Positions 1-48,592 are shown, counted from the whole stretch's first letter. The stretch is 63,887 bases of DNA, filler included, from Hausera hauseri (GCA_046269625.1; 12 parts of 12 records of this genome joined end to end with filler, not necessarily neighbours in it), one strand, 5' to 3'. A program made the numbers and translations. The notes: a model not told the origin generated them from the letters alone.

Positions 1-1238
1 AGTACGCTGGCGTACCTCTTCGAGAGAACAATATCGTGCATCATGTAAAGGTCCATCAAGATTGTAAAGTTGACTCCGGAGACCGTCAAACGAGTGATAT
101 AAACGAATGAGTTCTGTTAAATAGAATATATCGTAATGTCATACCGTAAAGAAGCGCATGTATTTATACTGAAATGTAACAAACAAATTATACTGATTCA
201 CGAAATCAAACATAGCAAAATATATATATATGAATAAATACGGTCAATCAATTTTTCATTACAATAAAAAGCGAAGCATTAAATAGAAGTCCAATAAAAA
301 AGTTAATACGTCATTGTCGTTTTCTTCTCATTTCATCCTTGATACGTTTTACGAACAGCGGTATGACTCTCCCCTGCTCATTATTCTCGTTTCTGTGTGC
401 TCACATAACAACTGTACATCAAACATATATCCGGTCAAAATGTCATAGGTCAATCTGTGGATTTGATTTTCAATATACTATTCCATTTGATTTAGTATAG
501 TAATGTTGAAAAACGTTTATAGCCGATTTAGGCGACGTCTGGGACTGCAGTAAGGGGAATAAGTTATGGTGTATTGCAGTTAAATTTACTTATTTATAAT
601 TAATACATTTTATTTGTTTTTAGTTTAATTTGTTTATCATTCAGAAATGTTTGCAATATCCAGTGTATTGCGTTTCCCGCATATATGAGGTGAACAATGC
701 CACAAGTAAATTGCCAAATATTATTCAGTGGCCAAGGACACGTGCTGTATCCTGTGTGTTTTATTCAAAATACATGCCCGTACGCCAACTTTTATGAAAT
801 TCTCAAGAATCATCTCGGGACCATAAAGTACATGACGTTCGTGGTTGCCGTAGTGCAATGGAGCAATACTATGGCAGCACAATGGTGCACAGAAAACGGG
901 CCTATGTATGTCTTAGTTGGTCTATAGCTGATGATAAAATTAACTATGAACTATTTTATAATCAGCACCGTGATCACTTAAACCACTTTGAGCGGCAAAT
1001 ATTAAGGAACGCAGCAAAAAGCAGCAGTAGCAGTATTCCCTCAACAAGTAGGAAACATCAGGCATGAACAAGTCTTAACGAATACTTGCAAAAAAAAGAA
1101 ATCAAAAACAACAGAAGCAGCTGCATCAGGAACAGGAGCAACAGGGATGGAACCCTGCTTTAGTGTCATGTACGATTTGAAAAAGTCGTACATGGATATG
1201 AATTGAACATGTGAGCGACAACAACAACAACAACGCAA

Positions 1239-4200
1239 TTGAGACATGTTCCATCCATTGTGCGAAGCTGGTTTGGATATGAAGTGGACAAATTCAACCA
1301 CCACTACAAAGAGCAGTATTGTGCACTTGCAGAATTCGAAAACTTGAAAAGCTACAGGAAACAATGGTACCTGTCACATCGAGCTGTACTATATACCGAG
1401 GATTTTATCTCTGAGATTGGCGAAAAACTCGAGGCGAAAATTGCCAACTACACGAAAAAGGGTAGTGGATGGCGAATTGTAAAGATTGTCACTCTGGGCT
1501 TTATCATTACAAAGTCGAGTGGCATGATTTACATGTCGAGGTGGTCATTCATACCTACAACTGCAGCCCTGAAGCACTCTAAAACTGTAGTCAATGTAGA
1601 AAATAATGGCTACGAATACTGCTTTTTTGCAGTATTTTAGCCATATTAAAATATGATAAAGTACCCAGAAATCGTGCAAATCGTTCAAAACAATATCGTC
1701 CGTATTTTTCCGAATTGGACTTTGATGAAAGTTGGATGCCGATGAAACTGAAAACCATTCCGGCTTTTGAATGGCGTAATCCCACACTGTAAATCAACAT
1801 TTTCCTATAAAACTCAGTAATAGAGATACGGGCAGATGAGAAAATTTACAAGAATCCTTACGTTGACATAATCTATCAAAGTCGGAACCTGAATAGACGT
1901 CCAGTATCCCTATTCCTGTTAGAGCAGGCAGAAAAATTTCATTACGTAGCCGTAACAAATCTGGGCAGACTGCTGAACATGGATCATGACCAGTACATCC
2001 AAAAACAAATACGCTGCAAATGGGTCCCTATATGTTTGCATAATTTTAGATCAGAAGCGACATCGGAAAAACATGTGGCGCTATGCAGGTTAAACGTATC
2101 TGGAACAGCAATGTACGTCATGTCAGTCGAAAGGAGCTGAGATTCACTGACTGGTGGAAAACGCACAGTCCAGTATATGTAGTCTGTGCCGATATTAAAG
2201 CAATTCTACTGCAGCAAAACGTATACGACCAAAAGCACATCCCAATCGCCTTCGGTATGTTGCTAATATTAATAAAATCCACCGGCCAACCGCAGTATTA
2301 CGCTTTCCACGGATGAAAGTGTGAACGTGATTTCCTGCAACAGGTTGAGGCAATAGTGGAAGCGGAAATCGCACCGCGGTGCAGTAACAACGTCACTAAG
2401 CCTTTGATCTGTACAGACGAGGACGAACGCCTTACGTTTGCAGTCACAGAAAAATGATACTTGTGCCATAAAGTATTACCATTCCATAAACAGGAATGGC
2501 TCGTAGCTGATCACGACCACTTTGCCGAACGATACATTGGAACAGCAAGAAATTCATGCAATTTAGGACAGCGTGTGCGGCCATTCCTGCCGGTGATATT
2601 CCATAAATTCAGGAGTTATGATTGTCACCATATTCTGAAATGTGCCATTAATGGATTTCCACACTTTGAACTGTCTATAATCCCAGCAACAATGGAGAAA
2701 TGCCTGTCTCTGTCGGCACGCATAAACCGGTTCCAAGTGAAATTCTTTGACTCGTTACAATTCCTCAATGAGTCTGTAGCAAAGCTGATAAATGCCTTGC
2801 CGGATGTGCCGTTAAAATCAACGCAGCTTCCGATGCATATTGCACATAGCAAAGGCATATTTTCGTATGACTTTGCCGTATCGTACGAGCGGTTTCAGAT
2901 AACAGAGGAATTGCCGCCGCATTGGCTCAGTATATAACAGACGATGAATACCACAGAGCACAGGGATCTTGATCATAGCTCGGCTGCAGAAACCTGTTGG
3001 ATTACATGCTCCAGTATCTGAAATTGGACGTGTACTTGCTTGCCGACGTGTTTCAGAAATTTTGGACTAAGGCGTTTGCGGAATATAGGCTGGAGCAGCT
3101 CAACTTTTACTCCATACTGGGAATAACTTCGTCATCGGCTTTTATATCACTGGACCGGAACATTGAGCTGTTGCAAGATCCAGAAATGTACCGAATGTTT
3201 GATGTTGGAATTCGTGGCGGCATGGCATTTGTCAACAAGCATCACGTAATCAGTGATGATACTACATCACGGTTGTATATCGACATTAATAATCTCTACG
3301 GTTAGGCGCTTTCACAACCCTTGCCGTACGGTTCATTCTAATGGATAGTAGACAAGCGAGAGCTGGACTCAATAATAGAAAATCTGCCAAGAGCAGACAC
3401 AAGAGAAAACAGCTCAATCGGATACCTGATGGAAGTCGATCTCGTGGTACTAGATGAGCTGCATAACTTTCTGTACGAACTGCCGGTCTTACCAATCGGG
3501 CAACCTATGCCGTTCTCGAAGGTGAAGAAGACGCTTATGATGCATGGACGTCAACAAAATTATATGGTTCATTGGTATCTCTTGAAATTTTACATGTAGT
3601 TGGGTGTACGCATTACACAGCTACTTCGCGCAATACGATTTGCACAGGCTCCGATATTCAAGGCGTGTATCAGCCGGAATTCGGAAAAATGAGCTTCAGC
3701 TTGTACAAAGTTCGGAAAGAACTACTACAAGTTGAAAATTAATTCTCCTACGGCAAAACAGTAGAGAACCTCAAAAGGCGACTTAATGTGTGCCTATGTA
3801 ACAACGAAAAGCGATTGGTTACGTACACCAGCAAAGCTCAGTTCAGGCGATCAATGCACATTGCCGATGGATTGATAGCCGTGCTGTTAAACAGGGAAGA
3901 AGTCGTACTGAACCTATCAAACTATATCGGACAAGTCGTGTTGGACCTGAGCAAGTTGCGAATGTACTAGCTGCAGTATTGCAACTTGGCATGTTACCGG
4001 CAAATGTTTGACGGCTGTGAGATAAGTATCGTTGTCGGTAACACAGACAGATTTTTCCTTCAGTTGAAAGACGTCAATCGCGATTAACTGCTCCGTCAAA
4101 TGATGGCAGATGGACTACTGGACACGTCCCATTACCCGCAGAATCATCCGTTGTATAGCAACGCCATCGCGAACAAAACTGTCTGCTTCAAGGATGAAAG

Positions 4201-4522
4201 CGAAGTCCGTGTTCAGTACCGAGAATGCATATTCCTGCGCCCAAAGTGCTACAGTCTCCGGACGTACTGTGGACCGAAAATTCACGCAAAAGGAGTTCAG
4301 CTGTCCCAGACGGAAATAAACCACATTGATTATCGCCATATTTGTGAAGTAGCAAAACAAGAAGACAGAGGACGACAAGGAGGAGGACAATTAATGGCTG
4401 TATGTCAAACGATTATACGGTCGATTGAGCACCAGCTGTATACTGTAACAAACATAAAAATCGCTTTGCCATGTATTTGCAATAAGCGAAAATGGGTGGG
4501 ACGAAATAAGAGTTGGGCGTGA
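1239..4522 (+). pseudogene. Protein-primed family B DNA polymerase (Polinton/Maverick/adintovirus type), fragmented
   Basis: Collinear motifs across broken ORFs: KGSGW, SFIPT..VVNVENN..CFF, HYVAVTNLGRLL, CxxC..H..C finger, ExoI ADIK, EndoVII-like DHDHF..CNL, ExoII FHKFRSYDCH, FFDSLQFL, KGIFSY, ExoIII YLKLDVYLLADVF, GIRGG, motif A YIDINNLYG, motif B KxxxNS.YGKTVEN, FKDE, LRPKCYS, AKGV. Many stops and frameshifts. Confidence 0.93.
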
Positions 4523-12117: not shown

Positions 12118-13211
12118 NNNNNNNNNNNNNNNNNNNNNNNNNNNNNNNNNNNNNNNNNNNNTTAATTAATTAANNNNNNNNNNNNNNNNNNNNNNNNNNN
12201 NNNNNNNNNNNNNNNNNTAAACGCATCCATTTCAAGGGGGGCTATAGGGTTTTGGGCCAGAACTCTCATTTTTCCTCTACTATAGCACTTGCTTTGTTAG
12301 AATGCCGCAAATCAATGTAATGATTCCGTTAGCATTTATATCAAACTTGCTTTGCATTGAAGTCCATTATCACCGAATATATGTCTATATCCTTGTCCCA
12401 TTCGAATTTGGTGAAGTGAAAATAGTAATTTTCACTAAATTGCATAAAGTCCGGAATTGAAAAAATTAAAATAATTGAATGAATGCACGGTGAAAAAAGT
12501 CTCTGAGGAGTAAACTGTGCAGGTTTCTACATTCCATTGTCCTAAATGTGACGTATATGTGAAATCTTATACATATATATAACCATATATTACACAACAT
12601 ACCTCCATATTGTGTAATATGTGTGCGAGTATGGGGCTTCGACCCCTGGACCTCCGGCTAGGGGCTGTGCCCCTTTGTAACCCCCTGTTGGGACCTCGAA
12701 ATAGTATTGCCTTTTAACTATATCGGGCGTTCCGTGGGCATATTTTCGTTTGTTTTTTCCTTTTTGTTTGGTACATCTTTGATTTTTGTTGCACTTTTCT
12801 TGTTTTGTGGATTTGGTACGGTTTCTTCTTTTTGTGTTTGTTTGTTTTTTTCTTTTTCGTGCTTCTTCAGTTTTTGTAGTTTTAAGGTTTCATCTTACAA
12901 AAATACTATTAACAAAATTATAAAATAACAATCGACAACATCACAGATTCGGCCAAAATAAAATACATCAAAAACAAATAAAATCACGGATTCGGTAAAC
13001 ATCAAAATTTCACCCATACAAAACAACATAAAAAACATACAAACTAAAAATCAAAAAGGGGATTGCAAGTGCTGAGGCAATCAGCACTTGTAGCCAACAA
13101 AAGTCACTAAACAAAATCTGTGGATTTAAACTCGTTTGCTTAAATACGCAGTTTAAAAATCAGTTGTAAAGTTTCAATACAAAGTAATCTTTCACAAAAT
13201 ATCCACACACA

Positions 13212-13814
13212 ATGTCGGAAATCTTGAACACCATCGGAAAAGCATGTACAACGGAGAAATCAACCATGCTTGTGCCGCTTCCCACCAACCCAAAGATCAG
13301 TGAACCCACCACCCGAAAACAGGCTTCAGGAATCACAGCGAAACAGGAGGTCAATAAAATCACTAATTTGACTCCAGGATACCGGATCCCTAAACGATCC
13401 CAATCCGAACTGGAGAGAAAGCAGGACCCAGATAACAATCCAACCTCGACCATCAAGCCCGAGCAGCCATGCCCGACCCAGCGAGACGCCGTTTCCCGCA
13501 GAAAACGACACCGCATCCGGGATTGTCAAGCTCCGTGCCGTTATGACTCTGATTATCAGACGGTACGGGAGTTGCTGCAGCGGAGCCGTTTCGTGCGGCA
13601 CCTCAGCAGACTAGACGAGAACGATCTATACTGCCTCCCGACAGGACATCTTAAAAGATTCTACGCCGATGGAGACAGCCGACGGTTGTTCGACTCCTCC
13701 GCCTTCCTACCAGTCTTTATAAGACTGATGGCAGCTATAGATTTGCTTTTCGAATCTCTGGTTCCATCTGAGAGCCAGTTGATTCCAGAACGTAGAATTC
13801 CTAAACTGCAGTAG
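13212..13814 (+). CDS. Unknown protein, repeated gene family copy 1
   Basis: 200-aa ORF with a core about 70% identical (48/69 aa by hand) to ORF 39736-40134. Similarity continues past the stop to ~14010, followed by AATAAA. Confidence 0.7.
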   Translation: MSEILNTIGKACTTEKSTMLVPLPTNPKISEPTTRKQASGITAKQEVNKITNLTPGYRIPKRSQSELERKQDPDNNPTSTIKPEQPCPTQRDAVSRRKRHRIRDCQAPCRYDSDYQTVRELLQRSRFVRHLSRLDENDLYCLPTGHLKRFYADGDSRRLFDSSAFLPVFIRLMAAIDLLFESLVPSESQLIPERRIPKLQ

Positions 13815-14427
13815 ACGACAACGTCGAGCTCAGACGACATGCCAGTCCCGCCTCGTAGACGCCGAGTAGTACCGATGCGAAGGGAAGCACCCAGACCACC
13901 ACCAGCCCGGACGATGTGCGGGTACCACCACAACGACTTCGCAGACTCGGATCGTCCCAATCCAGTACGAACAAATCGTATGCCTCGTTGAACGAGCTTA
14001 ATATGGAGCAAAATAAATGTTTTAAATCTTATTTCTTCTTTATTCTTTTGGCGTTTTATTCCGTGATTTTACTCGACCATTTCATAAATCGAAAAACCTC
14101 AAAACTAGTTTTTTTCTTTGGTTTTTGGCGCTTTTGTGATATTTTTCTGTTTTCTGATTTTTCCTTCCAGACAATTTCAATTGTAGAGGTTATATGTTAT
14201 GCTGCAGTTGTTGTAAACATTTAAGTATACATCATCGAACTATTATGACAAAAATTTTTGAAAAAGATCAGTTCAAATTGTGCAACAACTCAGTTTTAGG
14301 AAAAACTATACAGAATAAGAAATAGGCTGTAAATTGAGTTGGTCAACGACTGGACAAATACAAGAAATTAATTGCAAAGCCGCATTTTTTACATAGCACT
14401 ATATATTCGGAAAATTTTGCTAGTATC

Positions 14428-14627
14428 TGTGGTGCCCGAAACGGGCGACGCCCTCCGGCCCATTTGGTTGGACACGGCCGGGCGTCCGGTGCCGCCGCGT
14501 AGGGCCCATAGGCGGGCCTCAGATCTTCCGCCTCTAAAATTTCCGTGGATTTATTCAATAATACTTTCAAACCGCATCTGTCCTTCTTGGATTCACTTTT
14601 ATCCGGTCAACCATTGCTAACAACACA
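14428..14627 (+). repeat. Solo LTR-like sequence of the local gypsy family
   Basis: Starts TGTGGTGCCC and is closely similar over ~80 bp to the LTR start at 45053 (minus). Candidate end ...ACACA; no TSD confirmed. Confidence 0.65.
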
Positions 14628-15019
14628 TAATTGTTTCTTATACCAAAGAAAGATTATAAATATTGCAGTAAAGATAATACTCTAGACTTTTCGCATTCGA
14701 ATTTCACCATAATGTCATCGGCAAATAATTGCACAGTCAATGAAATCCCGATGTTGTTACAATGTTGTCTGTACAATTCAGATCCACAAACAGTGTCAGT
14801 GCCACACAAAAAGGCGTCATCATCACCATCATCACTTAACGAAATCAATTGTGATTACTCACGATCCCGCTGATCCGACTGTCAAAAGATGCCATCACAA
14901 ATACGGTCTTTCGCATCATCATTATCATCATCATCATCATAAACATTCAAATGATATTCTAATCAATCGAACACCTGTTACTGAGAGCTGTATTCCAAAG
15001 TGTTTGCATTATAATTCGA

Positions 15020-15630
15020 ATTCAAATGTTGCCATCAAAATCATTCGGAATCAAAGAAGATTCGTGCAACAAGCCGAGACAGATATTCGACTTCTGCGAA
15101 TGTTGGCCAGGTATCAGGAAGACCAAGATTTCATCAGCATGCAACATTGAGATGCTAACTGCATTGTTCGATTGAAAATTCATTTCATGTATCGAGGACA
15201 TTTGTGCCTTATGTTCGAATTGCTCACTTAGTCTGAATGAGTTACTGAAAAATACCGGTTGCAGTAGAGTATCCCTAAGTTTGACAAGGAAGTTTGTACT
15301 GCAGCTGTGTTCAGCACTCCATTTTCTTAGTCAGCCATCACTACAGATTGTACATTGTGACTTAAAACCCGAAAATGTTCTATTAGTTCATCCTCGACCG
15401 TCTACCATTAAAGTTTTAGATTTTGGCAGTTCTTGTCGACTAACGAATGACTCTATGTTAACATTCAGTCTCGATTTTACAGAGCTCCAGATGTTTTATT
15501 GTATCTTCCATACAATATGGCCATTTACATGTGGTCACTCGGCTGTGTTTTGGTTAAGCTGCACACAGGCCATCCACTGTTTGTCGGTCAGTGTGAGCAT
15601 GGACAAATACAAAGAATTATCGATTATTGG
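15020..15630 (+). pseudogene. DYRK1: DYRK1/minibrain-like kinase fragment, disrupted
   Basis: [76 protein letters not shown]. Stops and frameshifts; no introns seen. Confidence 0.88.
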
Positions 15631-16899
15631 ATATTATTTACGACATCTCAAATTCAAACGTTATTACTTTGGATCGCAGCAAAATAAACGTCTCAATGAC
15701 TTGTTTTTATGCAGCAGATTCTGAGCAACATCATCCGAACAATTTGAAGATGTTAAATATCAATGAAAACAGTTTAGGCAAAATAATTGTGAATTTTTTA
15801 AGTTCCGGTAATACAAACTTTTCACTTGTATATNNNNNNNNNNCTTTACAAATTACAGTATTTGCTTATGATGCCTATCAGAAGGCCGTGTATTCAAAAG
15901 AACATGTCCTGCCACATTTCAAATACTCAGTGAAGCAACTTTTATTTATTAAATTAACACAGATCTTTTGTTCCAACATTAAAGAAAGTTATATAAATCA
16001 ACTCCATAAGAAAAATGAATTAATCGACAAAGATATCGTTAATTTTCTGATGCAACTGCATTCATTCAGAGATGCTTTTCAGTGCTATAGAAATTCCAAT
16101 TATACCAAAAATCAGTGTTGTAAATTTATTTTTTGATATATTTTCTGTATATTTTTTTGAATGGGCATGGTCTGATTTTATATATTTCATTGTAGTGCAT
16201 TTTCAGAAAATGATTGAGTTATTGAAAAGTTGTTGTTTAATAATATACACTTTCAACTTTTTGAATTTGATGTGAAATTACTTCCGTCATATTAAACGAA
16301 TTTGGTTATTTTTAAAGAATTTGCTGTTCTGATTTTTTTTAGTTTGAATCTGTCATTTTAGACAGATGATTGTGTTTTAATTTGAAGTCATCTCTACGAT
16401 ACTTTTCCTGAATTCGTTTGGATTTCACTTTTTTTTTAGAAAAAGAGATGAGTTAGTTCGCGTTATACAATGTTAAATGCAATCCAATCTATTGTTTTTG
16501 ATGAGTTCTACCTTAGTATTTTCATTGAAATTCCTCATGAGTGGACCGATTTTTTCGAATTTTCTGTTGGTTTTGCGGACACTCCCGGCGAAAGTCACAC
16601 TGGGAAATTCTATACTGTTGGTAGAACATTCAGATTTTGACAATTTAAAACGATTTCTCAAACCCTCAAATTCCCGATAAATTATCGACACAGAAGTTAT
16701 TTAATTATTTAGATGGGAACATTATCGACAGACGGAAGGTTGATTTAGAAAGATTTTTGATGAAAGATTAATTCAGAGCTAGTTCATTACTCAAAAGAAA
16801 ATTTACCAAAAACGTCGTTGGATTTTCGCTGTAAAGCTAAGTGGGATAGTGGTGGATTCGTTCCAGAGACACGTAGCTGCATTGAGCATCAACGAATCA

Positions 16900-24140: not shown

Positions 24141-27104
24141 TCAATATGAGGAACAAGATATCAAGTCCTCTATGTGCTGTCTTCCTGCATTTATCAACCA
24201 TCTACTCACATGGTTCTTAAAAAGTGTAGTATTCAAGCTTTTCAAGTCACCAGGGAGCAGATTGTATATTTTTGGTGCTAAATAATTAAAATGTCGTTGG
24301 TAAAGGGCCTTCTTTGCCAACTGCGGCAGGAGCAAATGTCGGTTTCTCGTCGAATACTGATGGGCTCTTTCCTGCATACTGTCTCTGTTTTTATGTAATC
24401 TGGTCAAAATTTCCTTAGAGTACAGCTGCCTAATATCTAAAACTTGAAAATCCGCAAACAGTTGTTCAGAGGAATATCTTATTGTCTTCTTGCTTATTAC
24501 TTTTAATATTAATTTTTGTACGTTCAGCAAAGGACTCATGTGACTATATGAGGCCCCGCCCCAACCTACAATCCCATATGTCAGCAGCGATTGAACAATT
24601 GCATAATAAACAGTTTTTAGTGTGGCTTTATCTAAAACCGTTCTAAGTTTTTTAAATAAATAGACTGTCCTCCTGAGTCTTTTACAAAGTCCCCCAATGT
24701 GCTCATCCCAGCGCAGCGAGGAATCAATGATTATTCCCAGATACTTGACTGATTTTTTCCTAGTCACTGTTTGACAGTTAACTCTGCAACCGGACTCATT
24801 TACGCAGCTATGTACCACTAACTCCTGAAAAGTTGTTTCTCCATGAGCAGTTGGGGAAAAACCGAGGAAGAACGTCTTTTCATAATTCATGCTAAGCAAA
24901 TGCAAATCCAACCACTGCTTAACAATCCTGAGGCCCATCTCCGCCTTTCTCTGTACATCATTCCAGTTTGCACCAGAAAAAAGAATAACGGTATCATCAG
25001 CATATGCTACAATTTTGCCATCCACCAGTAGTTCACACAAAGGATTTATATATAATAGAAAAAGAATTGGCCCCAAGACTGTACCTTGTGGTACGCCGTA
25101 ATCCACAACTAACTTATCACTGAGGTGCCTGTTCACCCTAACTCTTTGGACCCTACCTGCTAGATAACTCTCAAAAAGCTTCAAAGCCACTCCCCTCACT
25201 CCCATTATATGTAATTTTGACAAAAGAATCCGATGTGATATTGTATCAAAGGCCTTCTTTAAATCTAGAAAAACAGCCAAAGTCTTTTCATCATTATTTA
25301 TGTTGCTTATAACATCAGTTAAAAGTCTATGGATTGCATCATTTGTGCCGCGTGATGAGCGAAAGCCAAATTGATTTTCCGATATCAGACCATGCCTGTC
25401 AAGAAACCCAACCAATCTAGATTTTATGCATTTTTCATAAATTTTTGATAAGGTACCAGTCAGAGAGATTGGCCTGTAACAATTTATATCACGCTTATCT
25501 CCACCTTTAAATATAGGACAAATTATGGCCTCTTTTAAATTCTGGGGGAAAACTCCCTCTACAAAAGATAGGTTCACAAGCTTAGCTATTGGTATACTTA
25601 ATACAGTTTTATTCTGTTTAAAAAAAGTTGGCTTTAGTTGATCTGGTCCTGAAGCACTATTACTTCTTAACTCGTCTATAATTTTAATTATTTCATTTTC
25701 CGTGACTGGTCTCAGAAAAAGCGACTGTGATAAGTTTTCTTCAGTTTTGCTGACCGGTTCCTTGGTTGGTTGCTGATGTGTCTTCAAAATTTTCTGAGCC
25801 AAATCAGATCCAATTTTAGTGAAGAATACATTGAAGGCATTAGCCATTTCTTTATCATTGTCCCCAGCATTTAATACTTTGCCACACACTACAACTTGCT
25901 TGATGTTTTCCTTGTTAACTTGATCATCTGTGATTTCCCTTATTGTTTTCCAAGTATTTTTTGAATCTTTTGAAAATTGTAATTTTCTAGCAAAATGCTC
26001 TCTCTTTGTACTCTCTATTAACTTAGTTAGTAAGTTTCTGTATCTTTTATAGTATTTTGAAAGCGCTTGGTTGTTTGGATTTGACTTACATAATTTGTGT
26101 AATTTATCACGCTTTCTTATTGAAGTTACTAGACCGAAAGATATCCAAGGTTTAAGTTTTCTATTATTATGAGAAAGTGTTTTTACTTGTTTACATTTAA
26201 AAATAACATCCTCAATTATCCTCATAAACTCCTGGAAAGCAGTCTCTACATCTGTTTGTAACATGACTGTATCCCAATTTAAATTTTGCAATAATGTTGA
26301 GGCTCTAGATTGATCTACTATTTCACAAAATGTTTCTCTCTGTATTTTTTTTATTTTGGAAACATGTTTAATACCGAGCATTGTGGTATAATGATCAGTT
26401 ATTGAGTTTTGAAAAACGATAGACTTCATTTCCATGTTAAAATTTACCAGAATGTGATCTATACAAGTGGCTGAATTTTTGCTGACACGTGTAGGCTGCG
26501 TAATACAATGAGTGAAATTATAACTGCTGAGCAGATTTTCATATTGTTCAATCTGTCGGTGCTGTGCCGGTTCCTTAGTGTTTATGTTTACATCACCAAG
26601 AAAGATGCAGTAATGCATTTTTTTTGTGTCAAGGATTTCATCTAGTTCAGTTATAAACTCTGATATATCATAATATGAAGGAGACCTATACAATGCTATT
26701 ATTGAGAATATATCCTTTTCAACTGAGAAATTAATAGATAAACAGTTTGCTTGACTGATATATGGTTCTGTAAAAGTTACATTAAATTCCGACTTGACAT
26801 ACACGACCACTCCATCATTTTGTAGCCTATTATTTTTTGTAAAGTGGGCTATATAACCTTGCATTAAACGAGGAATAAAACCATCAGCAATCCAGCATTC
26901 AGTTAATATGATAGCGTCAAAATTAACTTTCAACTCTTCCATTTGTATAAAAAATTCATCTATGTTTTTACAATAACTCCTGATATTAAAACTAACAATT
27001 TTTATATTGTAAGGTGTAAAGTCCCTTCTAACGCTTTCAGAATCCAGGCTAACCACTTCCTGAATATTTCTAAATGAATCCAACTCTTCCAATAATGGTT
27101 CCAT
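24141..27104 (-). CDS. LINE ORF2: APE endonuclease + reverse transcriptase (987 aa)
   Basis: APE motifs: SFNIRS, LTECW, GVVVYV, YRSP, LGDVNIN, PTR, CIDHI, TDH. RT motifs: YRPISL, QFGFR, FLDLKKAFDTI, GVPQGTVLGP, YADD, YLGI. CR1/L2-type C-terminus YYAIVQSLLTYG..WG. Uninterrupted. Confidence 0.97.
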   Translation of the reverse strand: MEPLLEELDSFRNIQEVVSLDSESVRRDFTPYNIKIVSFNIRSYCKNIDEFFIQMEELKVNFDAIILTECWIADGFIPRLMQGYIAHFTKNNRLQNDGVVVYVKSEFNVTFTEPYISQANCLSINFSVEKDIFSIIALYRSPSYYDISEFITELDEILDTKKMHYCIFLGDVNINTKEPAQHRQIEQYENLLSSYNFTHCITQPTRVSKNSATCIDHILVNFNMEMKSIVFQNSITDHYTTMLGIKHVSKIKKIQRETFCEIVDQSRASTLLQNLNWDTVMLQTDVETAFQEFMRIIEDVIFKCKQVKTLSHNNRKLKPWISFGLVTSIRKRDKLHKLCKSNPNNQALSKYYKRYRNLLTKLIESTKREHFARKLQFSKDSKNTWKTIREITDDQVNKENIKQVVVCGKVLNAGDNDKEMANAFNVFFTKIGSDLAQKILKTHQQPTKEPVSKTEENLSQSLFLRPVTENEIIKIIDELRSNSASGPDQLKPTFFKQNKTVLSIPIAKLVNLSFVEGVFPQNLKEAIICPIFKGGDKRDINCYRPISLTGTLSKIYEKCIKSRLVGFLDRHGLISENQFGFRSSRGTNDAIHRLLTDVISNINNDEKTLAVFLDLKKAFDTISHRILLSKLHIMGVRGVALKLFESYLAGRVQRVRVNRHLSDKLVVDYGVPQGTVLGPILFLLYINPLCELLVDGKIVAYADDTVILFSGANWNDVQRKAEMGLRIVKQWLDLHLLSMNYEKTFFLGFSPTAHGETTFQELVVHSCVNESGCRVNCQTVTRKKSVKYLGIIIDSSLRWDEHIGGLCKRLRRTVYLFKKLRTVLDKATLKTVYYAIVQSLLTYGIVGWGGASYSHMSPLLNVQKLILKVISKKTIRYSSEQLFADFQVLDIRQLYSKEILTRLHKNRDSMQERAHQYSTRNRHLLLPQLAKKALYQRHFNYLAPKIYNLLPGDLKSLNTTLFKNHVSRWLINAGRQHIEDLISCSSY

Positions 27105-27106
27105 AT

Positions 27107-28098
27107 TTATGAAACTAATTTATTTTTGTTTTCCCTGAAAATTCTATTTAAATTCCACTGCTTAAGCTCCTCTTCTGTTGTACAATCGAGCCTTTTAATG
27201 AGTTTTTCTACGGCATCATCTTCTCCTGTAGTTAAATACCTAAAACTATTTGTGTGTCTAGAGAGAGCTACAACAGCATGCGGTTCGCTATTATAAATTT
27301 CTTTTGATCGCGAATCTATTCTAACTAAAAGGACATTTTTTGAAGTCTGTCCTTGGGCCTCATGAACCGTAAGTATATTGATTCCTGTAAGCCTAAAACG
27401 ATACAAAGTATCTATTAATATACGCTTTTCTTTTTGGGTAAAAGTAAGAATCAAAGTATCTGATTCCAACTGGTAAAATTGACCGTTTTTAATTGTGGGC
27501 CATACAGATTTTATTTTACTACTTGTTGTTATAATATTTTCATAATAGCAAGACAAAGCATAACAGACATCTACAGGGCATCGGCGTGTCTTATCAATGT
27601 TCTCAGCAGGGTCACAGAAATTTGACAGTTTGGACCAGTTTGTTTTACTGTTTGTCCTTTCAATATATGGGATCTGCTTTGAATCGCCAACCACTACAAT
27701 TTCAGAGGCACCACTCAGAATTGCAACAAAACCTATATATCCTGCGTGCATTAATAATCCTTCGTCAATGTACACCCTGTCATAAGCCCTGCTTTTATGA
27801 TTTATAATATAGGACGCAACCGTTCTATAGTCTTCGTATAATCTTAGACTTTCCTTACTATCAGAAAACTGCTTGGCTACAGTCTCCCGAATGTCTTTAA
27901 CTCCAGCTCGTGTTTGACTTAGTATAAGATCCCTGCCAGGTTTATGATCGGAAACGATGTACCAGGTTTTCCCCGATCCTGGTACTCCTTCTATCCATTT
28001 TATTCTCGGCAATTTACTTTCATTAATTTTAAGTTTATTTATTTTTGAGGTAAGTTCCCCATTTAACATTAACTCAGTGTCACGTGTCACTAAAACAT
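27107..28098 (-). CDS. Viral superfamily-1 RNA helicase (alpha-like/virga-nege type), N-terminus truncated by gap
   Basis: Motif I GVPGSGKT, Ia LILSQTR, II YIDEGLL, III VGDSKQIP, IV TRRCP, V TVHEAQGQT, VI VALSRHT. The frame is open up to the gap. Confidence 0.95.
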
Positions 28099-32326: not shown

Positions 32327-34470
32327 ATCGTACTTGTCTTTGTTTTAAGTCTTGATAAGGCGTCTGCGTCTACATGTTTACTTCCGGGTTTATATTGAAA
32401 TTCGATATTGTACCGCGAAATTTCCTCAATCCATCGATTCAATCGACACGTCGGGTTATTATTCCTGCCCTTTAGTGTGGTAACAGCTTTATAATCGGTA
32501 ACTCTAATAATTTTCTGACCGTAGACATAGACATTAAAATGTCTCAAGGCTTCTTTTACGGCTAGTGCCTCTAAATCAGTGACTGAATAGTTTTTTCAGC
32601 TTTCTTAAGCGATCGTCCTCCATATGCAGTTGGATGCTCCAATTCTTCGTCTTCTCGTTTTTGAGCTAAATCGTAAACAAGTCCTTCCTTACTTGCGTCT
32701 GTTTTAATTATAAATGGTAAATTGAAATCCGGGTATCTTAACACTGGTTCACTCGTTAAAATTTTCTTTATTTCATCAAATGCTTTCTGTTCAACATGGA
32801 TCCATTTCCATTTTATGCCTTTTTTCAATAGACGATATAAAGGTGCATTTATTTTCGAACTGTCTGGTACGTAGGTGGCATAATATCCGCATAAGCCTAA
32901 CATATGTCTTTATTCTTTTTCATTTTGGAGTTCCATACAATCTGATATTTTGTTTAATAAGGATTTATCTGGCTTTGATCCTCCTTCTCCAACTATATGT
33001 CCAAGATAAGATACAGCATTTTGTGCCCATTTACATTTCTTTGGGTTCAGTTTTAATCCTGCCTGTTCCAATCACATAAGAGTATCTTCGATGTACTTTA
33101 GGTGTTCTTCTTCTGTTCTTGACGCTATCATTACATGGTCTAAATATGCGAACGCATGATCAAGTCCCATTAACATTTTATTCATCATTCTGGTGAAGAT
33201 AGCTGGGCTGGTTGTTATACCGAACGGCATGACATTAAATTCGTAAACTCCGTCGTGTGTCTTAAATGCAGTTTTATAACGGTCATCCTCTTCAATTTTC
33301 ACTTGCCAAAATCCTGATTGCAAATCTAAAGTGTTAAACCACTTTGCTCCTGATAATCGGTCTAAAGCTTCTTTTACTGACGGTAGTTGAAATGAGTCCT
33401 TCATCATAAGCGTGTTCAGGGCTTGGTAATCTATACAGAATCGATGTTTTGTGGTACCTTTTTTCTTGACCATAAATATTGGTAAGTACCAAGACCGGCA
33501 GCTTGGGCGTATTATGTCGGCCTTTAACATACATTCTACTTCTTTAGTTATTTCGGGCCTTAATGAATGAGGCGGTGGATACCATTTTGGCGTTTTTTGC
33601 TCTTCCAAATCGATTTCGTCGTTGGAGCGAGGTTTATTTTTTAATGGAATGGTTAGCCTTAATGTCTTTGCTCTACCTATGTATTCTTTGTTTTGAGCAA
33701 TAACCGATTTATATTTACAGAGTAATTTGTAAAATTGACAATACGCTTCTAGTGAAAATTTTGTTTCGACATGAGGTAGAAATTCGGCACATTTAAATGG
33801 CTTTTCCTCGATTGTTATTGCCGATACCTTATAAGTATGACCCAAGGTAGTATTGACATACAATTTTACGCGAGTAATTGCATTATTTACTATTCTGATT
33901 GGTATCCTTCCTTTTGTTACTCGTGTCAAAATGTTACTAAGTATGATATTTGGATTAACGTTTTCTTGTGGCTCAAAATATACCGGCTGGTCGTCTTCTT
34001 CTCGGATCTGGGCATAAATTAACATTTCGGTTATGGGTGGAATATATTCATCGACGGGGATCCATACTTCGCCTAGTTTCCTTCCTTTCATTATTTTAAT
34101 TCCTTTCGGTGGTCCGAGTTCAAGTAATTTTCCAGTCTGTACGTTATCGCAATATTGGGTAATTGTTTCAGTATGTCGCAACCTAATACTACATCATGGG
34201 TTAGGTGGTCAATTACGGCAAATTCATGTCGAAGAATTTGGCCCATTAGTTGAACTAAGGGAAACTATTTAAATTTCGGTTTGGATTCTTGCCCGAAGGC
34301 TCCTATGCTTCCTGGATTTGATGACGATGCTGGCTGCATTTGTTTCCGTAATATCGGCGGTATTGATTCTAATTTGATAAACGATTTTTCCAATCCGGTG
34401 TCGATTAAGGCATAGACTTCCTAATCGTCAATGGTAACTTGTGTGAAGGGTCTACCTTCCATAACTGTTC
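32327..34470 (-). pseudogene. Ty3/gypsy pol: protease-RT-RNase H (degenerate, cut by gap)
   Basis: ALIDTG at ~34400, RFCIDY, LDLQSGFWQV, KTAF, MPFGI, AYLDH (decayed YLDD), LGLCGYY, IKTDAS, TDYKA, YKPG..H..ADALSR. Confidence 0.93.
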
Positions 34471-34970
34471 CATAACAACACGACACGTCCTTTGGTCGTT
34501 TAACTGAAGAAATCTTATGTCCGTTTATCATTATTTCTGGTGATGAAATGATATTCTCGGTCAACTGTTTCAGTTCTTCGTTAGGGTATAAGTCGTTGAT
34601 TGTTACATTACCTGCGTTGTTTCTAATTAATGATTCTTGTATTATTGGGTTTTGAACCGATTTCAGTCCTTGTGTTCCCCAGACTCTTGATCTTGTCTCT
34701 ATATTACGAGCTATTCTCGGTTAATACAATATCCTCTGGTCATTTTCCGCTGGTCGTTGATTAGTTATTTGCATTTTCTTTAATACCCCATATTGTTTTG
34801 TATTATTGTAATACTCCGATTTATATGACATCATAGATGTTTTGTCGCAATCTTCATATATTGGAGCTGTGGGTGGAATAATGGGCCAGGGTGCATTGAT
34901 TACTGAATACATTTTGTGTCTGTTTTGTCTGAGGATTGTTTCTCCTTCCTTAGGCTAGTCGTCACCGGAG

Positions 34971-36900
34971 TCATTTCTTCGCGTTGTTAATTTTACGTTT
35001 CGATTGAAATGTGGGTCTTGCTCGTCGTTTATAATTATGGTAGCCGACATGGCGTTCAGCGTCATTTTTCCCTCGTTTTTCTTCATAGGCTTTAAGCATT
35101 TTGCCGAAAGGTGTTATAATTGCAGTTAGAATCTTGCAGAAAAACTCTATTAACGTGAGTATTTTGTACCCATTTATGACTGCTTGGATTACCGCTTTAC
35201 TAGTCCAGATGCGGCTTGTCCAAATATTAAAAATCTTTACGATATTTTGTAGAGTATTTCTGTGGTTACTCGCTGGTAATGGTTCGCACCAAGCAGGGAT
35301 TCCCATTTAGCCTGGTAGCGGGTATAGTCCCCTATGGTTGCCATGGCTGGGTTTAATTCCTGTGTTCGCTGTCATGGAAAAGCGAGAAATTTTCAAAAAG
35401 TTTCGATTTCTTTAGGCCTGTAAATACCATTTTGAGATGTATCCTAAAACTTGTCATCAGTAATTCCTTTTGCTAAATTATTTCCCGTTAGTTTCTTAGG
35501 AATGATAGTAACACTTCCATTAGGTAAGCTAACCCAATCTGTTTCACTACGCCTGAACATTGGTTCACCCAGACGTGCTTTGCAATCCATTAAAATCGTG
35601 GGGTGTGTTGCATTATCGAGCAACACTCTAGTGAGGGGAATGGCTAGATGTGGAGTATTCTGGTAGATTACAGGAAGCTCTTGTATGCATCGTTTTTCTT
35701 CGACGTCGATTGGTACATCTCTTTTCTGGCATTCATATGTCAGTACAACTTCGCCAGTAATTCGGCCAAAAATTCTTTCTCTCATAGGAATAATCGGCGA
35801 GGCTAACTCAGGGTTCGCATAAGTAAGAGCTAGTTTTGTCCTCCTAATCTCTGTATCCAATTTGCAGTCGTTAATTATCATCTTGTGGTATAATTCGGCT
35901 ATTCCGACTTGTCCTTTATAATAAAAATAGTCGTCTCGATTTTTAAGGTAATCTTCGATTCTAATATCTTGCGTTTCCAAGTTGTATGTTTCTGCGTTTA
36001 TCTCCGTTTCTGCGACAAAGAACACTTCGTAGATAGTGGTGAACATTACTACTTCGCAACGTGAAATCATTTTCTTTTTTTATGAATTTCAATACATGCT
36101 GATCAGAGATTAATATTGTGGGTGTAAAATGCTCTGATACATCTTCCCGTGCTCTTAAACAGATGTCAGATTTAATTACGTATCGTTTTCGGTAGTCTCT
36201 TTAAACTTCAATTCCTTAATTTTAATAAAGTTACATCCTTTTCCAGTGGGCGGTTCCCATATGAAGACAGAACTTCTAAAGGCACAGGTTCCGCCCTGTA
36301 TGTGACATCTTTGGTTCCCGGTATACAATTTAGTAACTCTATGGAACATCACTTTCTGTACTCGCATTTCTGATTCGTAAAAGTCCACTACTACTACGTT
36401 TGCTTCTAATCCTTTTCGGGTGTCGTATTCTGCTCCACTACAATGCCCGTTATGCATATTTAATCTTCCGACTACTATCTTGTATGCTCTGATTATTTTT
36501 CCGGGTTGCATTTTTAATTCCATACTATTTCATTTCAGTCTTCCGCTTTCTCTGGCCTGTTTGCAGTGTTGTCTTTCCAAATTTTTTGGAATCGGTGGGG
36601 TTGTTGGTTTGATTATCGAAGAATACTCGTGCATTATTCCACAGCGGAAAACACTGCGAGATTGTCTCAGCATAAACTCCATGCCATCCAAAGATATCAA
36701 CTCTTGTTATTGGTATAGATAATAACTCTTCTCCCTTGTTTCTAATTTATGTGGTTTAGCATCTTCACATGCTTCTAAGTCCATTAATGAATATTTTTGT
36801 CCAAGCTTCAATTTATCGCCATCGTAGACAGTAACAGCACCCGTTTGTTTTATCTGCATCATTATAGTGAGTAAACTGATTAACAAATTTGATTCGTTCT
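34971..36900 (-). pseudogene. Chuvirus-like (class III-type) envelope glycoprotein, fragmented
   Basis: Signal-like hydrophobic stretch, then VYDG...YSLMDLEAC, RSVFRCGIMH, QHCKQ..SG, NGHCSGAEY, NVVV, C....GTC....FIW....CNF, NDC, GRITGEVV..YEC..V.....C.QELPV, PLTRVL...DC...PMF, and a C-terminal hydrophobic VINGY region. This is the Cys/motif order of chuviral G proteins. Confidence 0.8.
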
Positions 36901-37559
36901 TCGTATTGTTATTATCTGTTGTCGTTAGATTTTGTATAATGTCTCCGAATACACTATTACTGTTCCTTTTGTCTTCTTCCTTATCAAATAATTTTGGCCA
37001 ATTTACTTCACACGGGAGTTTTCTAGATGCTCTTCGCGCCAAACTTGTGGCTCGATTTAGTTCATTTACTCGATTTGGATTTGTCTTGATTGCCAAGTAC
37101 AATAATACTTTTCTTAGCTCTTCTATCGTATTCTACACCATAATTTTTTCAACTACTGCGTCATCAGTTAAACTACTTTTTGACAGTTTGAAACGCGAAG
37201 TTCTCATTGTCCTAATTGCGTTAAATATCGCCTTTTCTTTGTCATGTAATGTATCTCTACAAAGACTTGAATAATTTACAATACGTATTAGATTCTTCAT
37301 TAGCTCGTTTAACTCTTCATTGTCGGTGCTGAAGGTAGGGATCTACATCTGTCTCAGCTCTCTAATTAACTCTCCATTTATAGTCAACTTCTCGGGGCTT
37401 CCTAGGTCTGCCGACTGGGCGTCTTGGTCTCGGAGCATTGGCTGCAATTCCATTTAGCGGCACTAGATTTTCGTTGTATTGTTCCTTGTCTTCATTCGTT
37501 TGTAAATACTCAAAATACATTGCAGCATCTCTTATTCCTATGATTTTTCCTACGCATTC

Positions 37560-38383: not shown

Positions 38384-39320
38384 AACGCTGTTTTCAGCTT
38401 ATGGATGCCTACCAAGTTCTCAGCATATATGGTGCTGCTGTGGAAGTTAGGCTTGACAATATGCTTTTTTGTCCGTTTCTAGTCACATACTAGCTCGATG
38501 TTTATTCTGTTGCGGATATTCTCCATCGTCTTGCAAAAGACGCTTATTATTATACAGCTTAAATTGATTATTCTCGAAATCGTTCTTGGCATTTGTCCGC
38601 AGCTTGGTATTCAGATCAATATAGGGCTGCAGCCACATGGACTGGCTGAACTTTAGGGCTCTATGGACTTTAGTAATGCGGAGACCATGTTTAACTGCCT
38701 GCTGGAGATTAATGTAATGAACTGTATACCTTTCCCTATTACCCAGATGATAAAGCAGCTTTCGCTGCTTTCTATTGTGCGGTGGCCTGCTTTCAGAAAG
38801 GAAAGGCAGCTGTTGATGCCTTGTTTGGATGGAAGTCGGATATTCCATATCCACCTTCAGTATGTAGCCGATATCTCCAGTAGGATCCATGTCCAGGATA
38901 GGGATGTATTCAGGATGCTCTACGCACTTGAAATTATCATATGGCAATGGGGCGCGCATTGCCCATCCATACAAGTTGTTGGCATCCAGGTAGGATATAT
39001 ATGATGACTCCTTTGTTAAGTCGTAGTCAGCCATATACGTCTTGGTGGCCTCGCTATACCGGTGAATGGCTTGGCATATTCCCCATCTAATGTCTATTTT
39101 AATTAGAAGGATCATGTCGCAATGCTTAATGATTTGGAGCCTGATACCGGTGTAGTGCAGCATTGCTGCCCAGCTCATCCCTGGAGCCGTGAAGAAATGA
39201 GCCGGATTTAAAGTATAGCTCTTCATTGCAACATCCCTGAAACTTTCAAAAACATCTGTCAACAGCAGCACATCGGTTTGGAGATATATATCACTATATT
39301 CCCCTAATGTTCAGCATTAG
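38384..39320 (-). pseudogene. Protein-primed PolB fragment (second lineage)
   Basis: EYSDIYLQTDVLLLTDVFESFR, PAHFFTAPGMSW.AML, IR.GI.Q, YLDANNLYGWAM, GYILKVDMEYP, F.QS.WL.PYIDLNT.LR..AKNDFE, KL.NN. Confidence 0.92.
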
Positions 39321-39469
39321 AATGCCTGCCAGACGTTCTGAGTTTAGGGGTCTGACGATTTGTGCCGGCATTACCACTGGCCCATCACTTAAGAGCGATA
39401 AAACAATAAACCAAAAAGGATATGGGACAATGACAAGAAAAAACGAGATAATTGTCACAACTTTTATTG

Positions 39470-40290
39470 CTAACATAATCGCTGTTGACCGAGTCAACCG
39501 AGGCATACGAGGCGTCCGTGGAGGATGATGCCAGGTAGTTTCAGAGACCGCGGAGTACACGGGTCGGAGCGTCGTCCGAACTCGAGTCCGACGGTGCGGG
39601 TTTTCTTGGTGCCGGGTCAATACATCGGCGACGAAGTAGTTTCGGTGCACTGCCTGGGCTCGAAGTCCTTCTAGGCATTCGTTGGTGATCTTGTCGTGTC
39701 GGGACTAACCCGCTGTCCGATGGTTCCACGGATTCTTAGAGGCGGTCGGAGGCCGCCATCAGTCTTAGGAAGACTGGCAGAAAAACCGACGAGTCAAAAA
39801 GGCGTCGATTTTTCCCGTCCTCGTAGAACCGATGAAGCGTGGTCGTCGGTAAGGCGTAGGGATCGTATTGCCCAAGACGGGTCAAGTGCCGTAAGAAACG
39901 GCTCCGTTGTAGGAGCTCCCGTACCGTTAGAAAGTCCGAATAAGACCGGTACGGGGCTGGACTGTTTGTGTCGCGACGGCGTTTTCCGCGGGAGGCGGTA
40001 TTCCGTTTGTTGGTGTGTAGCCATTTATCTGGTCGACCCGGGTCCAGTGAGGCGGTGCGGCTGTCGGCGTTATTGCCCGCCTTGGCATGCACCGGTCGGG
40101 GTATCTTGGGAATACGATACCCCGTAATCGGCATAGTCTTTCTGTCACCGAGGGTGGTGTTCGCTGCGTTGCTGTGTCGGCCGGGATGGCCTTTGTATCG
40201 TTCCGGGCAATTGGTTCGCCGGGTTTTGTCGTTTTGGCTGAGCTTAATTGCTCCGCGACATACTGGTTGGCCCTTGGATGCATCATGCCG
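39470..40290 (-). pseudogene. Unknown protein, repeated gene family copy 2 (disrupted)
   Basis: GYRIPK and TVRELLQRSRF...RRLFDSS.FLPVF.RLMAA are shared with 13212-13814. Shared SYAS C-terminal motif and downstream AATAAA. Confidence 0.7.
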
Positions 40291-41018
40291 TTATAACTGG
40301 CCGGCTTGTCCGTCTTTTCTTGAGAGTCATTGATCCGTTTATTTTGTTTTTTTTTAATACAATGTGCAATCCTTAGACTGTGGATTTAAACAAACGGATT
40401 AAATCCACAGATCTTGATTGTTAATTTTTATTATTACAAGTGCTGGTCACTTCGGAACTTGTAATCCTGATTTATTTTATGATTTAATTTTATTATTTCA
40501 ATTTATCTGTGATGTTGTATAAATTTAAGAAATTTTTATGTTTGGTGAATCCGTGATAATCAGTTATTGGTTTTATTTTTTGACCAGGTATGTGATGTTG
40601 AATTAATATTTTTTTGAGATTTCAATTTTAAATTAGCGTATTAGTAGAGAAAATTACCCGATTTTAATTTTATATATAGGTGAATTAAATTTTCGTGTTA
40701 GATTAACTTGTATTTAAGTATTTGATTTCTTCGTTGTGTGATATAACTTACATGTTTGAATGAATTTTTATAAAAATTTTAGATTGTAAGGTAGAACCTT
40801 ACATACATGTTGCAGTATGTTGAGCTGCAAACTTAAGGGTATTTGTTCGGATGTACACTTAAGCTTCTTGCCGGTGATACTGATAGTTTTTTTCTTCAGT
40901 GTCAAAATGAAATATAAACGCGTAACTACGAAAAATGAAGAATGACGGCTTGTTGGATATGTCAAGTTACAGACCGGACAATTGACTATATTCAACGGAA
41001 GTTGCAAATAAAATTGGC

Positions 41019-41345
41019 TTGGTTAAAGGTAAAAGTTGTGAGGTTTTTCACTTTACTGAATGGATTTTCCTTCGACCAAAATGTTACAGTATGTTAATTA
41101 GTGGCGGATCAGAAAAAATGAGAGCAAAGGGCGTTTCGTTGAAAAGGACCGCTATAAATCATGATTCGTTTAAAAATACGTATATTCATCAAAGTGAATG
41201 TCGAGTTGAACAGCGTCTCATACAGTCTATAAACCATCAATTGTATACAATTAAAAGAAATAAAATTGCTCTATCATCCGTGGACAATAAAAGACATTGG
41301 ATCAGCTGTAATGAAAGCCGTGCATATGGACATTACTCGCTTTAA
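41019..41345 (+). pseudogene. Protein-primed PolB C-terminal fragment
   Basis: EWIFLRPKCYS, RAKGV, I.SINHQLYTI..NKIALS..DNKR, RAYGHY; closely similar to 4100-4522. Confidence 0.9.
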
Positions 41346-42457: not shown

Positions 42458-42910
42458 ATGTTAGATAATATCAATTATCGCGGACATGTTACCGAGTGTA
42501 ACATTAACACACTACCTTTTAATCAATGGAAATCGAGGCAGTATGTACTCAAGTGTTCACCGGATTTTACATGCATTGTATTTCAATCGGGAAAGTGTCG
42601 TATTATGGGGTGTCGCAAACCAATCACAGCTGACAGTAACAGTAAAATACTACAATTCGGAATTGTCATTGACCAAATCTAATCAATAACGGTAACGACT
42701 CAGTTAGACTACCACCAAACAATTAATCTGTACAAATTAGCAATGGCCACTACTGAATGTATATATGAACCCGAACTATTTCCTGCACTGAGACTGACAT
42801 AGTTTCTCCCACTTTGTGTCAGTGTGTTTAGCAGTGGTAAAATTGTTGTACTCGGTATTCGGGCAGTGGACTATGAACCGATTATTAATCAAATTAAAAA
42901 CCATATAAAT
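42458..42910 (+). pseudogene. Divergent TATA-binding protein (TBP)-like ORF, two in-frame stops
   Basis: Both TBP repeats are visible: TCIVFQSGKCRIMG, then I*SITV...INLYKLA...YEPELFPALRL...VSVFSSGKIVVLG. Confidence 0.8.
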
Positions 42911-48268: not shown

Positions 48269-48592
48269 NNNNNNNNNNNNNNNNNNNNNNNNNNNNNNNN
48301 NNNNNNNNNNNNTTAATTAATTAANNNNNNNNNNNNNNNNNNNNNNNNNNNNNNNNNNNNNNNNNNNNAAAAGGTCAATTTGGAATTCTGATCGATTTTT
48401 TGATTTTTTTGATTCAGATTTTTGGGTAATTAAGAGATCCTAACAACAGAAAATACTCAATTAATTTATTTAAATATTACTTCTAAAATTAATTTTATTG
48501 AAAAATTAAATTAAATTAAATTTATTTAATTTTGCTAAAAAATAATTTGTTTCAAAATTAATTTTAATTAATTCATTCTTAATTAAGAAATA

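Follow-up and report, generated by a model that had tools for sequence, protein, structure and literature searches.

The stretch of DNA analysed here (the window) comprises 63,887 nucleotides (nt) of the genome of Hausera hauseri (GCA_046269625.1) and is made up of 12 contigs of 4-7 kb with N/TTAATTAATTAA linker between them. It contains two copies of a decayed orphan gene, each followed on the same strand by a remnant of a Polinton-type pPolB gene. Copy 1 lies on the contig at 12218-17421 (5.2 kb) and copy 2 on that at 38384-42350 (4.0 kb); since these are separate contigs, there is no physical linkage between the copies and only linkage within a contig counts. On the plus strand, copy 1 consists of an ATG-free leader of about 290 nt with 47% A (12922..13211), an open frame of 200 amino acids from ATG to stop (13212..13814) and a broken C-terminal tail (13815..14017), in which Ser/Asp patches alternate with Arg clusters. 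The open frame includes a GYRIPK island (13377..13394), a conserved core (13527..13745) and, after the core, a second RIPK motif (13794..13805). Copy 2, on the minus strand, has a leader at 40332..40612 and a broken coding region at 39451..40331, with GYRIPK at 40122-40105 and the core at 39960-39742. A search of the window with the family profile matched copies 1 and 2 only.

The sequence-only reading had taken the two units for a repeated gene with a conserved core, once protein-coding and under purifying selection, and both claims were borne out. The cores (13527-13733, plus strand; 39960-39754, minus strand) align without gaps and share 48 of 69 residues (70%). The ratio of nonsynonymous to synonymous change (dN/dS, Nei-Gojobori) was 0.195 over 69 codons and 0.183 over 73 codons, far below the value of about 1 that had been named as speaking against the claim, and the differences were distributed over the three codon positions as 18/16/41 (Fisher p 2.5e-8). 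Among the six frames, the frame read here is the only one without a stop in either copy; the antisense frame with which it has third positions in common also shows a higher proportion of synonymous differences (pS) than of nonsynonymous ones (pN), but has four stops in each copy. Synonymous sites of the core are near saturation (pS 0.62-0.65), which indicates extensive divergence of the copies during a time when selection still acted on the protein. Both copies also have GYRIPK, a basic patch, SYAS and a downstream AATAAA (14012-14017 in copy 1, 39468-39463 in copy 2), as had been noted before. LVPS and SSSDD, which had been listed with them as common motifs, are present in copy 1, but copy 2 reads VEPS in place of LVPS, and its SSSDD aligns with TSPDD of copy 1 and not with the SSSDD of that copy.

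Neither copy is intact at present. In copy 1, the stop at 13812-13814 precedes the conserved tail, the motifs of which are split over two frames; copy 2 is interrupted by one stop at 39738-39736 and another at 39543-39541, and its N-terminal motifs are distributed over different frames. The tails are nonetheless homologous at the protein level, as two frame pairs align, each with none of 300 shuffles scoring as high. Several casein kinase 2-type sites, (S/T)xx(D/E), are present, including SSSD in both tails; the pattern is a common one and carries little weight. The 12 nt encoding SYAS (13976-13987 and the copy 2 site) are identical in DNA, third positions included, and may therefore represent, in front of AATAAA, a cis element rather than a peptide motif. 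Based on these results, the repeat is a real, formerly functional orphan gene of which both copies have now decayed.

Searches for relatives returned a single protein. P0001 (213 amino acids) has 50% identity over 74% of the query and was the only one confirmed among 68 candidates of near length; a search for shorter proteins gave none among 57 candidates. When a profile of the three sequences was compared with 1,835,955,588 representatives without length limit, P0001 alone was found, itself part of the query. None of 63 pattern matches in GTDB genomes was confirmed, and phage and plasmid records gave no match to the gene. The coding regions of the two copies align with P0001 without an intron-sized gap. 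The earlier statement that no known domain is recognisable also held: the best Pfam match (E 0.033) is below the cut-off, and there was no match in PHROGs or among PDB sequences. In the AlphaFold2 model of the copy 1 protein, the predicted local distance difference test score (pLDDT) is below 50 at residues 1-55 and 62-109, so that the N-terminal half is predicted to be disordered, while the core is modelled as four helices (pLDDT 75.6; 53 for the whole protein), all models resting on three sequences. The best structural match (core Z 6.5, root-mean-square deviation 2.7, 68 residues aligned; whole protein Z 7.1) is the helical part of an unrelated methylase, which is a common helical arrangement. 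Foldseek comparison of the core, the check that had been suggested, gave no match at E <= 0.001 in the PDB and viral libraries, with a model built from three sequences; the whole-protein model had no Foldseek match either. In the ESM Atlas, residues 95-200 had one match at 0.76, which is below lead level, and the whole protein had no usable match. The protein is thus a member of an orphan family, with a small folded domain and mostly disordered sequence otherwise, both as predicted by modelling.

The linkage to pPolB was examined with a profile (length 1192) built from 32 of 120 fetched relatives, each of at least 1050 amino acids. The remnant beside copy 1 (14233..14427, plus strand as the gene) corresponds to profile positions 917-985, the motif B region, with an independent E-value (iE) of 1.9e-12, and is most similar to P0005 (53%). 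That beside copy 2 (38392..39343, minus strand as the gene) covers positions 670-989 (iE 3.8e-127 and 1.5e-13; PF03175, E 5.2e-13) and runs to the end of the contig. The same-strand remnant begins after AATAAA in both cases, at a distance of 216 nt (copy 1) or 120 nt (copy 2). Homology between the two remnants is seen in their DNA (score 67.5; null maximum 35, 0/200). The chance of a same-strand pPolB within 250 nt of a random point and strand in the window was 0.012, and 1.5e-4 for both copies, a figure calculated post hoc. The pPolB linked to copy 2 had 4580 relatives among 4968 candidates; the named proteins among the best 120 of these 4580 are Polinton-type pPolBs from arthropods and carry PF03175, many of them also PF02945 (endonuclease VII), and are mostly chromosomal. 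The GC content of third codon positions (GC3) of the gene is element-like: 0.58 and 0.63 in the two cores and 0.51 in the pPolB linked to copy 2, compared with 0.25 in the host-type Spt5 frame of the window.

Other pieces adjoin the two units. A 5' piece of a Gypsy long terminal repeat (LTR) at 14428..14540 (plus strand) was inserted after the copy 1 remnant, which it cuts, and is not part of the unit; it matches 45053-44943, a segment that comes after a G-rich purine tract at the end of a contig with Gypsy pol. Past the copy 2 leader, at a distance of about 185 nt, there is a C-terminal pPolB remnant of another subfamily (40804..41342, plus strand), with 43% identity to the contig-1 pPolB and a median of 32% to relatives of the downstream pPolB; it is a neighbour and probably outside the unit. 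Copy 2 is thus flanked by two pPolB fragments, as had been described, but the upstream one belongs to the other strand and to another subfamily. The two pieces as halves of one inverted gene were excluded, as their subfamilies differ. The gene is also not the N-terminal part of a pPolB, as no match was found in the 120 relatives (best E 1.2). Further pPolB remnants are present on three other contigs, at 1044-4498, 55860-55949 and 63492-63881, all on the plus strand.

The sequence-only reading had offered two possibilities, an accessory gene of a Polinton-like virus or a small unclassified mobile unit. The former gains support, since both copies are followed by related same-strand pPolB remnants. 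With a probability of about 0.65, the unit is a decayed, lineage-restricted accessory gene (cargo or early regulatory) of a pPolB-encoding element of Polinton/adintovirus-like type. Polintons, or Mavericks, are defined by long terminal inverted repeats and a target-site duplication. Among the linkages that had been suggested for examination, pPolB or ATPase on the one hand and terminal inverted repeats or target-site duplications on the other, that to pPolB was found at 2/2 copies, but no shared terminal inverted repeat or target-site duplication was found. No long inverted repeat occurs on either contig region, and the far end of an element would fall off the contig. AGTAGAG at 40643 was rejected as a Polinton end, as AGTAG[AT]G occurs 13 times in the window. 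No integrase, ATPase, protease or capsid gene was found on the two contigs, but these are too short and too decayed for a whole element. A frame on another contig (60122-60496, plus strand), with no Pfam hit, presumably carries motifs of a Polinton packaging ATPase.

Several observations weigh against this interpretation. On contigs of 5.2 and 4.0 kb, neither copy is linked to an intact element, a terminal repeat, an integrase or a capsid gene, and the evidence for membership of the Polinton group is the pPolB by itself. The window is rich in pPolB debris, which is present on 4 of the 12 contigs besides that of copy 1. In both copies the pPolB starts internally (at 917 and 670 of 1192) and no N-terminal remnant is found in either flank, so that two separate deletions are needed; in Alpha and Beta adintoviruses, PolB has an N-terminal OTU domain. 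The copy 1 remnant, with GC3 of 0.29 and 2 stops in 65 codons compared with 1 in about 270 in the gene (p 0.10), could be older than the gene. Finally, the family is known from three members only.

The leader is relevant to the other possibility, a mobile unit. It has 68% nucleotide identity between the copies (score 167; null maximum 83.5, 0/200), while the alignment of the N-terminal coding region is not above chance (score 19.5; null mean 22.6). The strong divergence that had been ascribed to the spacers is therefore found in the N-terminal coding part and not in the non-coding leader. A leader profile gave two significant matches only in the window. The leader is structured. In copy 1, hairpin 1 (13063..13093, plus strand) has a 13-bp stem of -22.4 kcal/mol (z -5.5, 0/500 shuffles), and hairpin 2 (13114..13154, plus strand; z -2.1, 15/500) differs from that of copy 2 by one two-sided and one G-U change. 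In copy 2, hairpin 1 (40464-40434) has z of -1.6 in the sense and -3.3 in the antisense direction, and hairpin 2 (40414-40375) has z of -6.1 (0/500). Of the cells in the 28 hairpin pairs, 92.7% are paired and four are broken, and the changes comprise three of G-U type and one that is two-sided. Covariation was discarded as evidence, as 249 of 500 shuffles were as high, and it cannot be significant because there are two sequences only. No Rfam family reached its gathering score in the window, the best match within 12600-14300 having E 0.45.

A self-contained cassette of 1.1 kb, comprising leader, gene and poly(A) signal and moving by itself or hitchhiking on Polintons into or beside pPolB, would account for some of these features, and is the main rival, though an improbable one. 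The leader hairpins would then be cis signals, which the basic protein might bind. The two copies have a common starting point of homology, with unrelated upstream flanks (score 38; 19/200 shuffles as high), the downstream pPolB starts at differing internal positions, and the pPolB of the other subfamily lies only about 185 nt past the copy 2 leader. The leader is moreover better conserved than the N-terminal coding region, and four changes in the 28 pairs preserve pairing. However, after a simple insertion into pPolB the earlier portion of that gene would be expected upstream of the unit, on the same strand, and it was found at neither copy. There is no poly(A) tail, and no transposase or reverse transcriptase in the unit; flanks and trailers do not align above chance, and no terminal inverted repeat or target duplication is shared. 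A 14-nt inverted pair (12877-12890/14094-14107, 93% complementary) brackets copy 1, with no counterpart recognised at copy 2. The T-rich flanks were also considered as direct or inverted terminal repeats and rejected, with scores (40, 31.5 and 44.5) within the shuffled ranges. The small mobile unit, the second of the two possibilities raised earlier, is weakened by this lack of shared terminal repeats, target duplication and poly(A). Two splice-acceptor-like tracts, 12846-12870 and 14146-14170 (plus strand), flank copy 1 at a distance of 1300 nt, both in sense orientation, and are among the four most pyrimidine-rich before YAG of 2916 sites in the window. The alignment of the two T-rich regions with each other is not above chance.

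Downstream of AATAAA, both copies continue in T-rich DNA without a poly(A) run, for 120-216 nt before pPolB. Such a trailer fits a genomic gene transcribed by RNA polymerase II (Pol II) and not a retrocopy. This bears on the idea of a retrocopy or chimeric cDNA, arising when viral mRNAs were reverse-transcribed and the template was switched, from a pPolB message truncated at its 5' end to that of the present gene. The common 5' boundary of the units, the same-strand pPolB truncated at its 5' end at differing points and the many retroelements in the window would be expected of such an origin, but in both copies the sequence after AATAAA resembles genomic DNA and not a processed mRNA. A retrocopy is the least probable of the explanations considered, and very improbable.

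The hairpins could also belong to the replication terminal repeat of a segmented DNA virus, bidna-like or Vesanto-like, of which a pPolB-encoding segment was endogenised twice. Hairpin 2 folds about equally on both strands. In the accessible parts of the two sources, Alpha-type PolB is described as related to the PolB of bidnaviruses (PMC8502044), and Vesanto virus is described as having segments of 3.3-5.8 kb with common terminal repeats, several of them with PolB (PMC8363768). An inverted copy of the leader was, however, found on neither contig, no predicted viral structure was matched at E <= 0.001, and most of the listed relatives of the pPolB are chromosomal proteins of arthropods, an endonuclease VII domain being present in many. 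This origin appears quite improbable, if somewhat less so than a retrocopy, and an accessory gene of a Polinton-like element remains the preferred interpretation.

What such a gene might do is suggested by the GYRIPK island, in which YRIPK is identical to the motif by which human SETD2 binds SPT6. All three members of the family have GYRIPK unchanged, within a region that is otherwise unalignable, and the third bases of its codons differ between copies 1 and 2 in 6/6 cases; it is therefore the peptide and not the DNA that was conserved. The pattern [YF][RK]IPK occurs at 2 of 127,770 six-frame positions of the window, which are these two, and at none of 106,325 residues of the 120 pPolBs; composition leads to an expectation of 0.0006. 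The Y[KR]IPK lies in a predicted disordered region with flanks of low pLDDT. The second motif after the core reads RIPR in P0001 and RMPR in copy 2. According to the accessible part of PMC12851032, the yeast YKIPK binds the death-like domain of SPT6, the human SETD2 motif is 2023-YRIPK-2027, the motif of Set2/SETD2 is kept in fly and worm, and its substitution by alanine impairs transcription-coupled trimethylation of histone H3 lysine 36 (H3K36me3). The available portions of PMC12572195 and PMC13535259 agree with this description of the SPT6-binding motif of Set2/SETD2.

Docking of the protein on SPT6 through YRIPK is nevertheless a tentative proposal, which we consider rather unlikely to hold, because the match was found post hoc by a literature search on the conserved motif. 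A chance match is possible with five residues, and this counts against the interpretation, as does the report, in the accessible parts of PMC12572195 and PMC13535259, that the short conserved stretch was by itself insufficient to restore the activity of human SETD2, for which, according to the former, a longer region was required. In the literature searched, in which few subscription papers were covered, no use of the YRIPK motif by a mobile element was found, the papers on the SPT6-binding region being concerned with Set2/SETD2 or histones, and no paper on SPT6 together with polinton was found. The 21 matches to 'yripk' in PMC10291038 are the word 'myriPKS4' and were dismissed.

The motif would most ordinarily be borne by a host protein, and it could be asked whether the copies are pseudogenes of a fast-evolving, lineage-specific host gene family (e.g., transcription-associated, with YRIPK used as in SETD2) that are neighbours of pPolB debris through chance or were taken up as cargo by Polintons. 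Decayed fragments of host type do occur in the window, among them a kinase piece on the copy 1 contig and, elsewhere, a LIM-domain piece, and P0001, the sole relative, is from one contig of 1,788 nt. On the other hand, GC3 is 0.55-0.63 compared with 0.25 in Spt5, a same-strand pPolB at 2/2 copies is unlikely by chance, the comparison with P0001 shows no intron-sized gap, and P0001 is the one relative in 1.84 billion representatives. A host gene family is considered improbable, slightly more so than the cassette, and less so than a segmented virus.

To our knowledge, it is poorly understood how Polinton genes are transcribed and how they avoid silencing after integration. For the accessory gene of a Polinton-like element preferred here, the following course can be proposed. 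The gene would have been located upstream of pPolB on the same strand of the element, and two diverged lineages of elements would have undergone separate integration and subsequent decay, the 5' part of pPolB that was lost differing between them. Transcription by host Pol II would give a message with a long structured 5' leader, and the protein, judging from its Arg clusters and Ser/Asp kinase-type sites, would be a nuclear, basic and phosphorylatable scaffold of motifs. Its YRIPK may bind the death-like domain of SPT6 as in SETD2, and docking on SPT6 may attach the helical core to Pol II during elongation, or compete with SETD2, favouring expression of the element. The accessory gene together with such a mechanism is, as a whole, slightly better than an even bet. 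The boldest version, in which a Polinton-type virus mimics the SETD2 motif, places its helical domain on Pol II through one or two YRIPK-type motifs, displaces SETD2 or recruits factors and so escapes chromatin silencing, with the two-hairpin leader controlling expression of the gene itself, is doubtful, a little more so than the docking step itself. If true, it would mean that host transcription is attacked at a new point, by a Polinton gene that copies a recently described SPT6-binding motif of SETD2. Even without the motif, a new orphan protein family remains, which is tied to pPolB and has a small folded domain, as predicted, and a structured leader that is conserved; should the motif match be due to chance, what is left is a decayed orphan cargo gene of modest interest.

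The remainder of the window contains Gypsy, BEL-type and long interspersed nuclear element (LINE) pieces, together with pPolB debris, an Spt5 frame that looks intact, and pieces of LIM and kinase type, from which the contigs appear to be repeat-rich leftovers of an animal genome, probably an invertebrate one. An intact LINE frame for endonuclease and reverse transcriptase (992 amino acids; 24141-27119, minus strand) has directly upstream of it a frame for a viral superfamily 1 RNA helicase (27110-28096, minus strand; PF01443, E 6e-32), and their contig is the sole CpG-depleted one among the 12 (observed/expected 0.58). A retrotransposon reverse transcriptase frame (33072-37132, minus strand) shares contig and strand with a piece of a Monjiviricetes-type fusion glycoprotein (35447-36079; PF24664, E 1.9e-16), and the two possibly represent an LTR element with a captured envelope gene of an RNA virus. 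The Spt5 frame (48587-51430, plus strand) extends over 947 amino acids without interruption, has all KOW domains and a GC3 of 0.25, and gives us the impression of a strong divergence from the Spt5 typical of animals. On the contig of copy 1, behind the LTR fragment, there is a decayed kinase piece with His-rich stretches (14713-15724, plus strand; PF00069, E 4e-12), which we take to be DYRK-like. Host-type fragments occur amid repeats at 56403-58268 (minus strand), 44527-44835 (minus strand) and 42803-43351 (plus strand), among them LIM domains and a weak TBP-like match (E 0.05); other pieces, which have no Pfam support, are presumably Prp8-like and Hox-hexapeptide-like. The last contig has diverged direct repeats (61359-61596/61793-62030, 69%; 62893-62955/63149-63211, 86%) between the ATPase-like frame and a pPolB remnant.

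Among known systems, the SPT6-binding motif of SETD2 has the same five residues in the human protein and likewise falls in a predicted disordered region. The present gene differs in having no SET or other SETD2 domain in Pfam searches, and in the second RIP[KR] after the core in two of the three members. Short motifs by which viral or transposon proteins take over host transcription are known from adenovirus E1A and the plant anti-silencing proteins VANC. The analogy to these is functional only, that of a small, disordered, motif-rich protein of a mobile element; no relationship in sequence or structure was found, and the proposed target, SPT6, is a different one.

Closer in position are the accessory genes of adintoviruses. 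As described in the accessible part of PMC8502044, the 'Oncoid' genes are typically upstream of PolB and are defined by LxCxE (Rb-binding), kinase sites and CxxC. The present gene resembles the Oncoid and Adintoc genes in its place upstream of PolB, in coding for a small protein of short linear motifs with (S/T)xx(D/E) sites, and in its linkage to a pPolB with PF03175, which is of the Alpha class according to the same portion of that source. However, neither LxCxE nor CxxC occurs in the seven readable pieces of the three members, so that the gene is not classed as an Oncoid; it has instead YRIPK and a helical core without known relative. Adintoc proteins, again as far as that part of the source describes them, show conservation across adintoviruses, whereas a single relative of this family is present in protein collections. 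With the cargo of nematode Mavericks (proteases named WASP and kinases named KRMA), the gene shares the character of a non-core gene of a Maverick/Polinton in a GC-rich, poorly conserved stretch, as cargo regions are characterised in the available part of 10.1101/2022.07.12.499685. That cargo, in the same part of the source, consists of enzymes with ubiquitin-like domains between the left terminal repeat and the integrase, whereas the gene described here has no enzyme fold and lies beside pPolB. Compared with these systems, it would be a previously undescribed type of Polinton accessory gene, an orphan family tied to pPolB.

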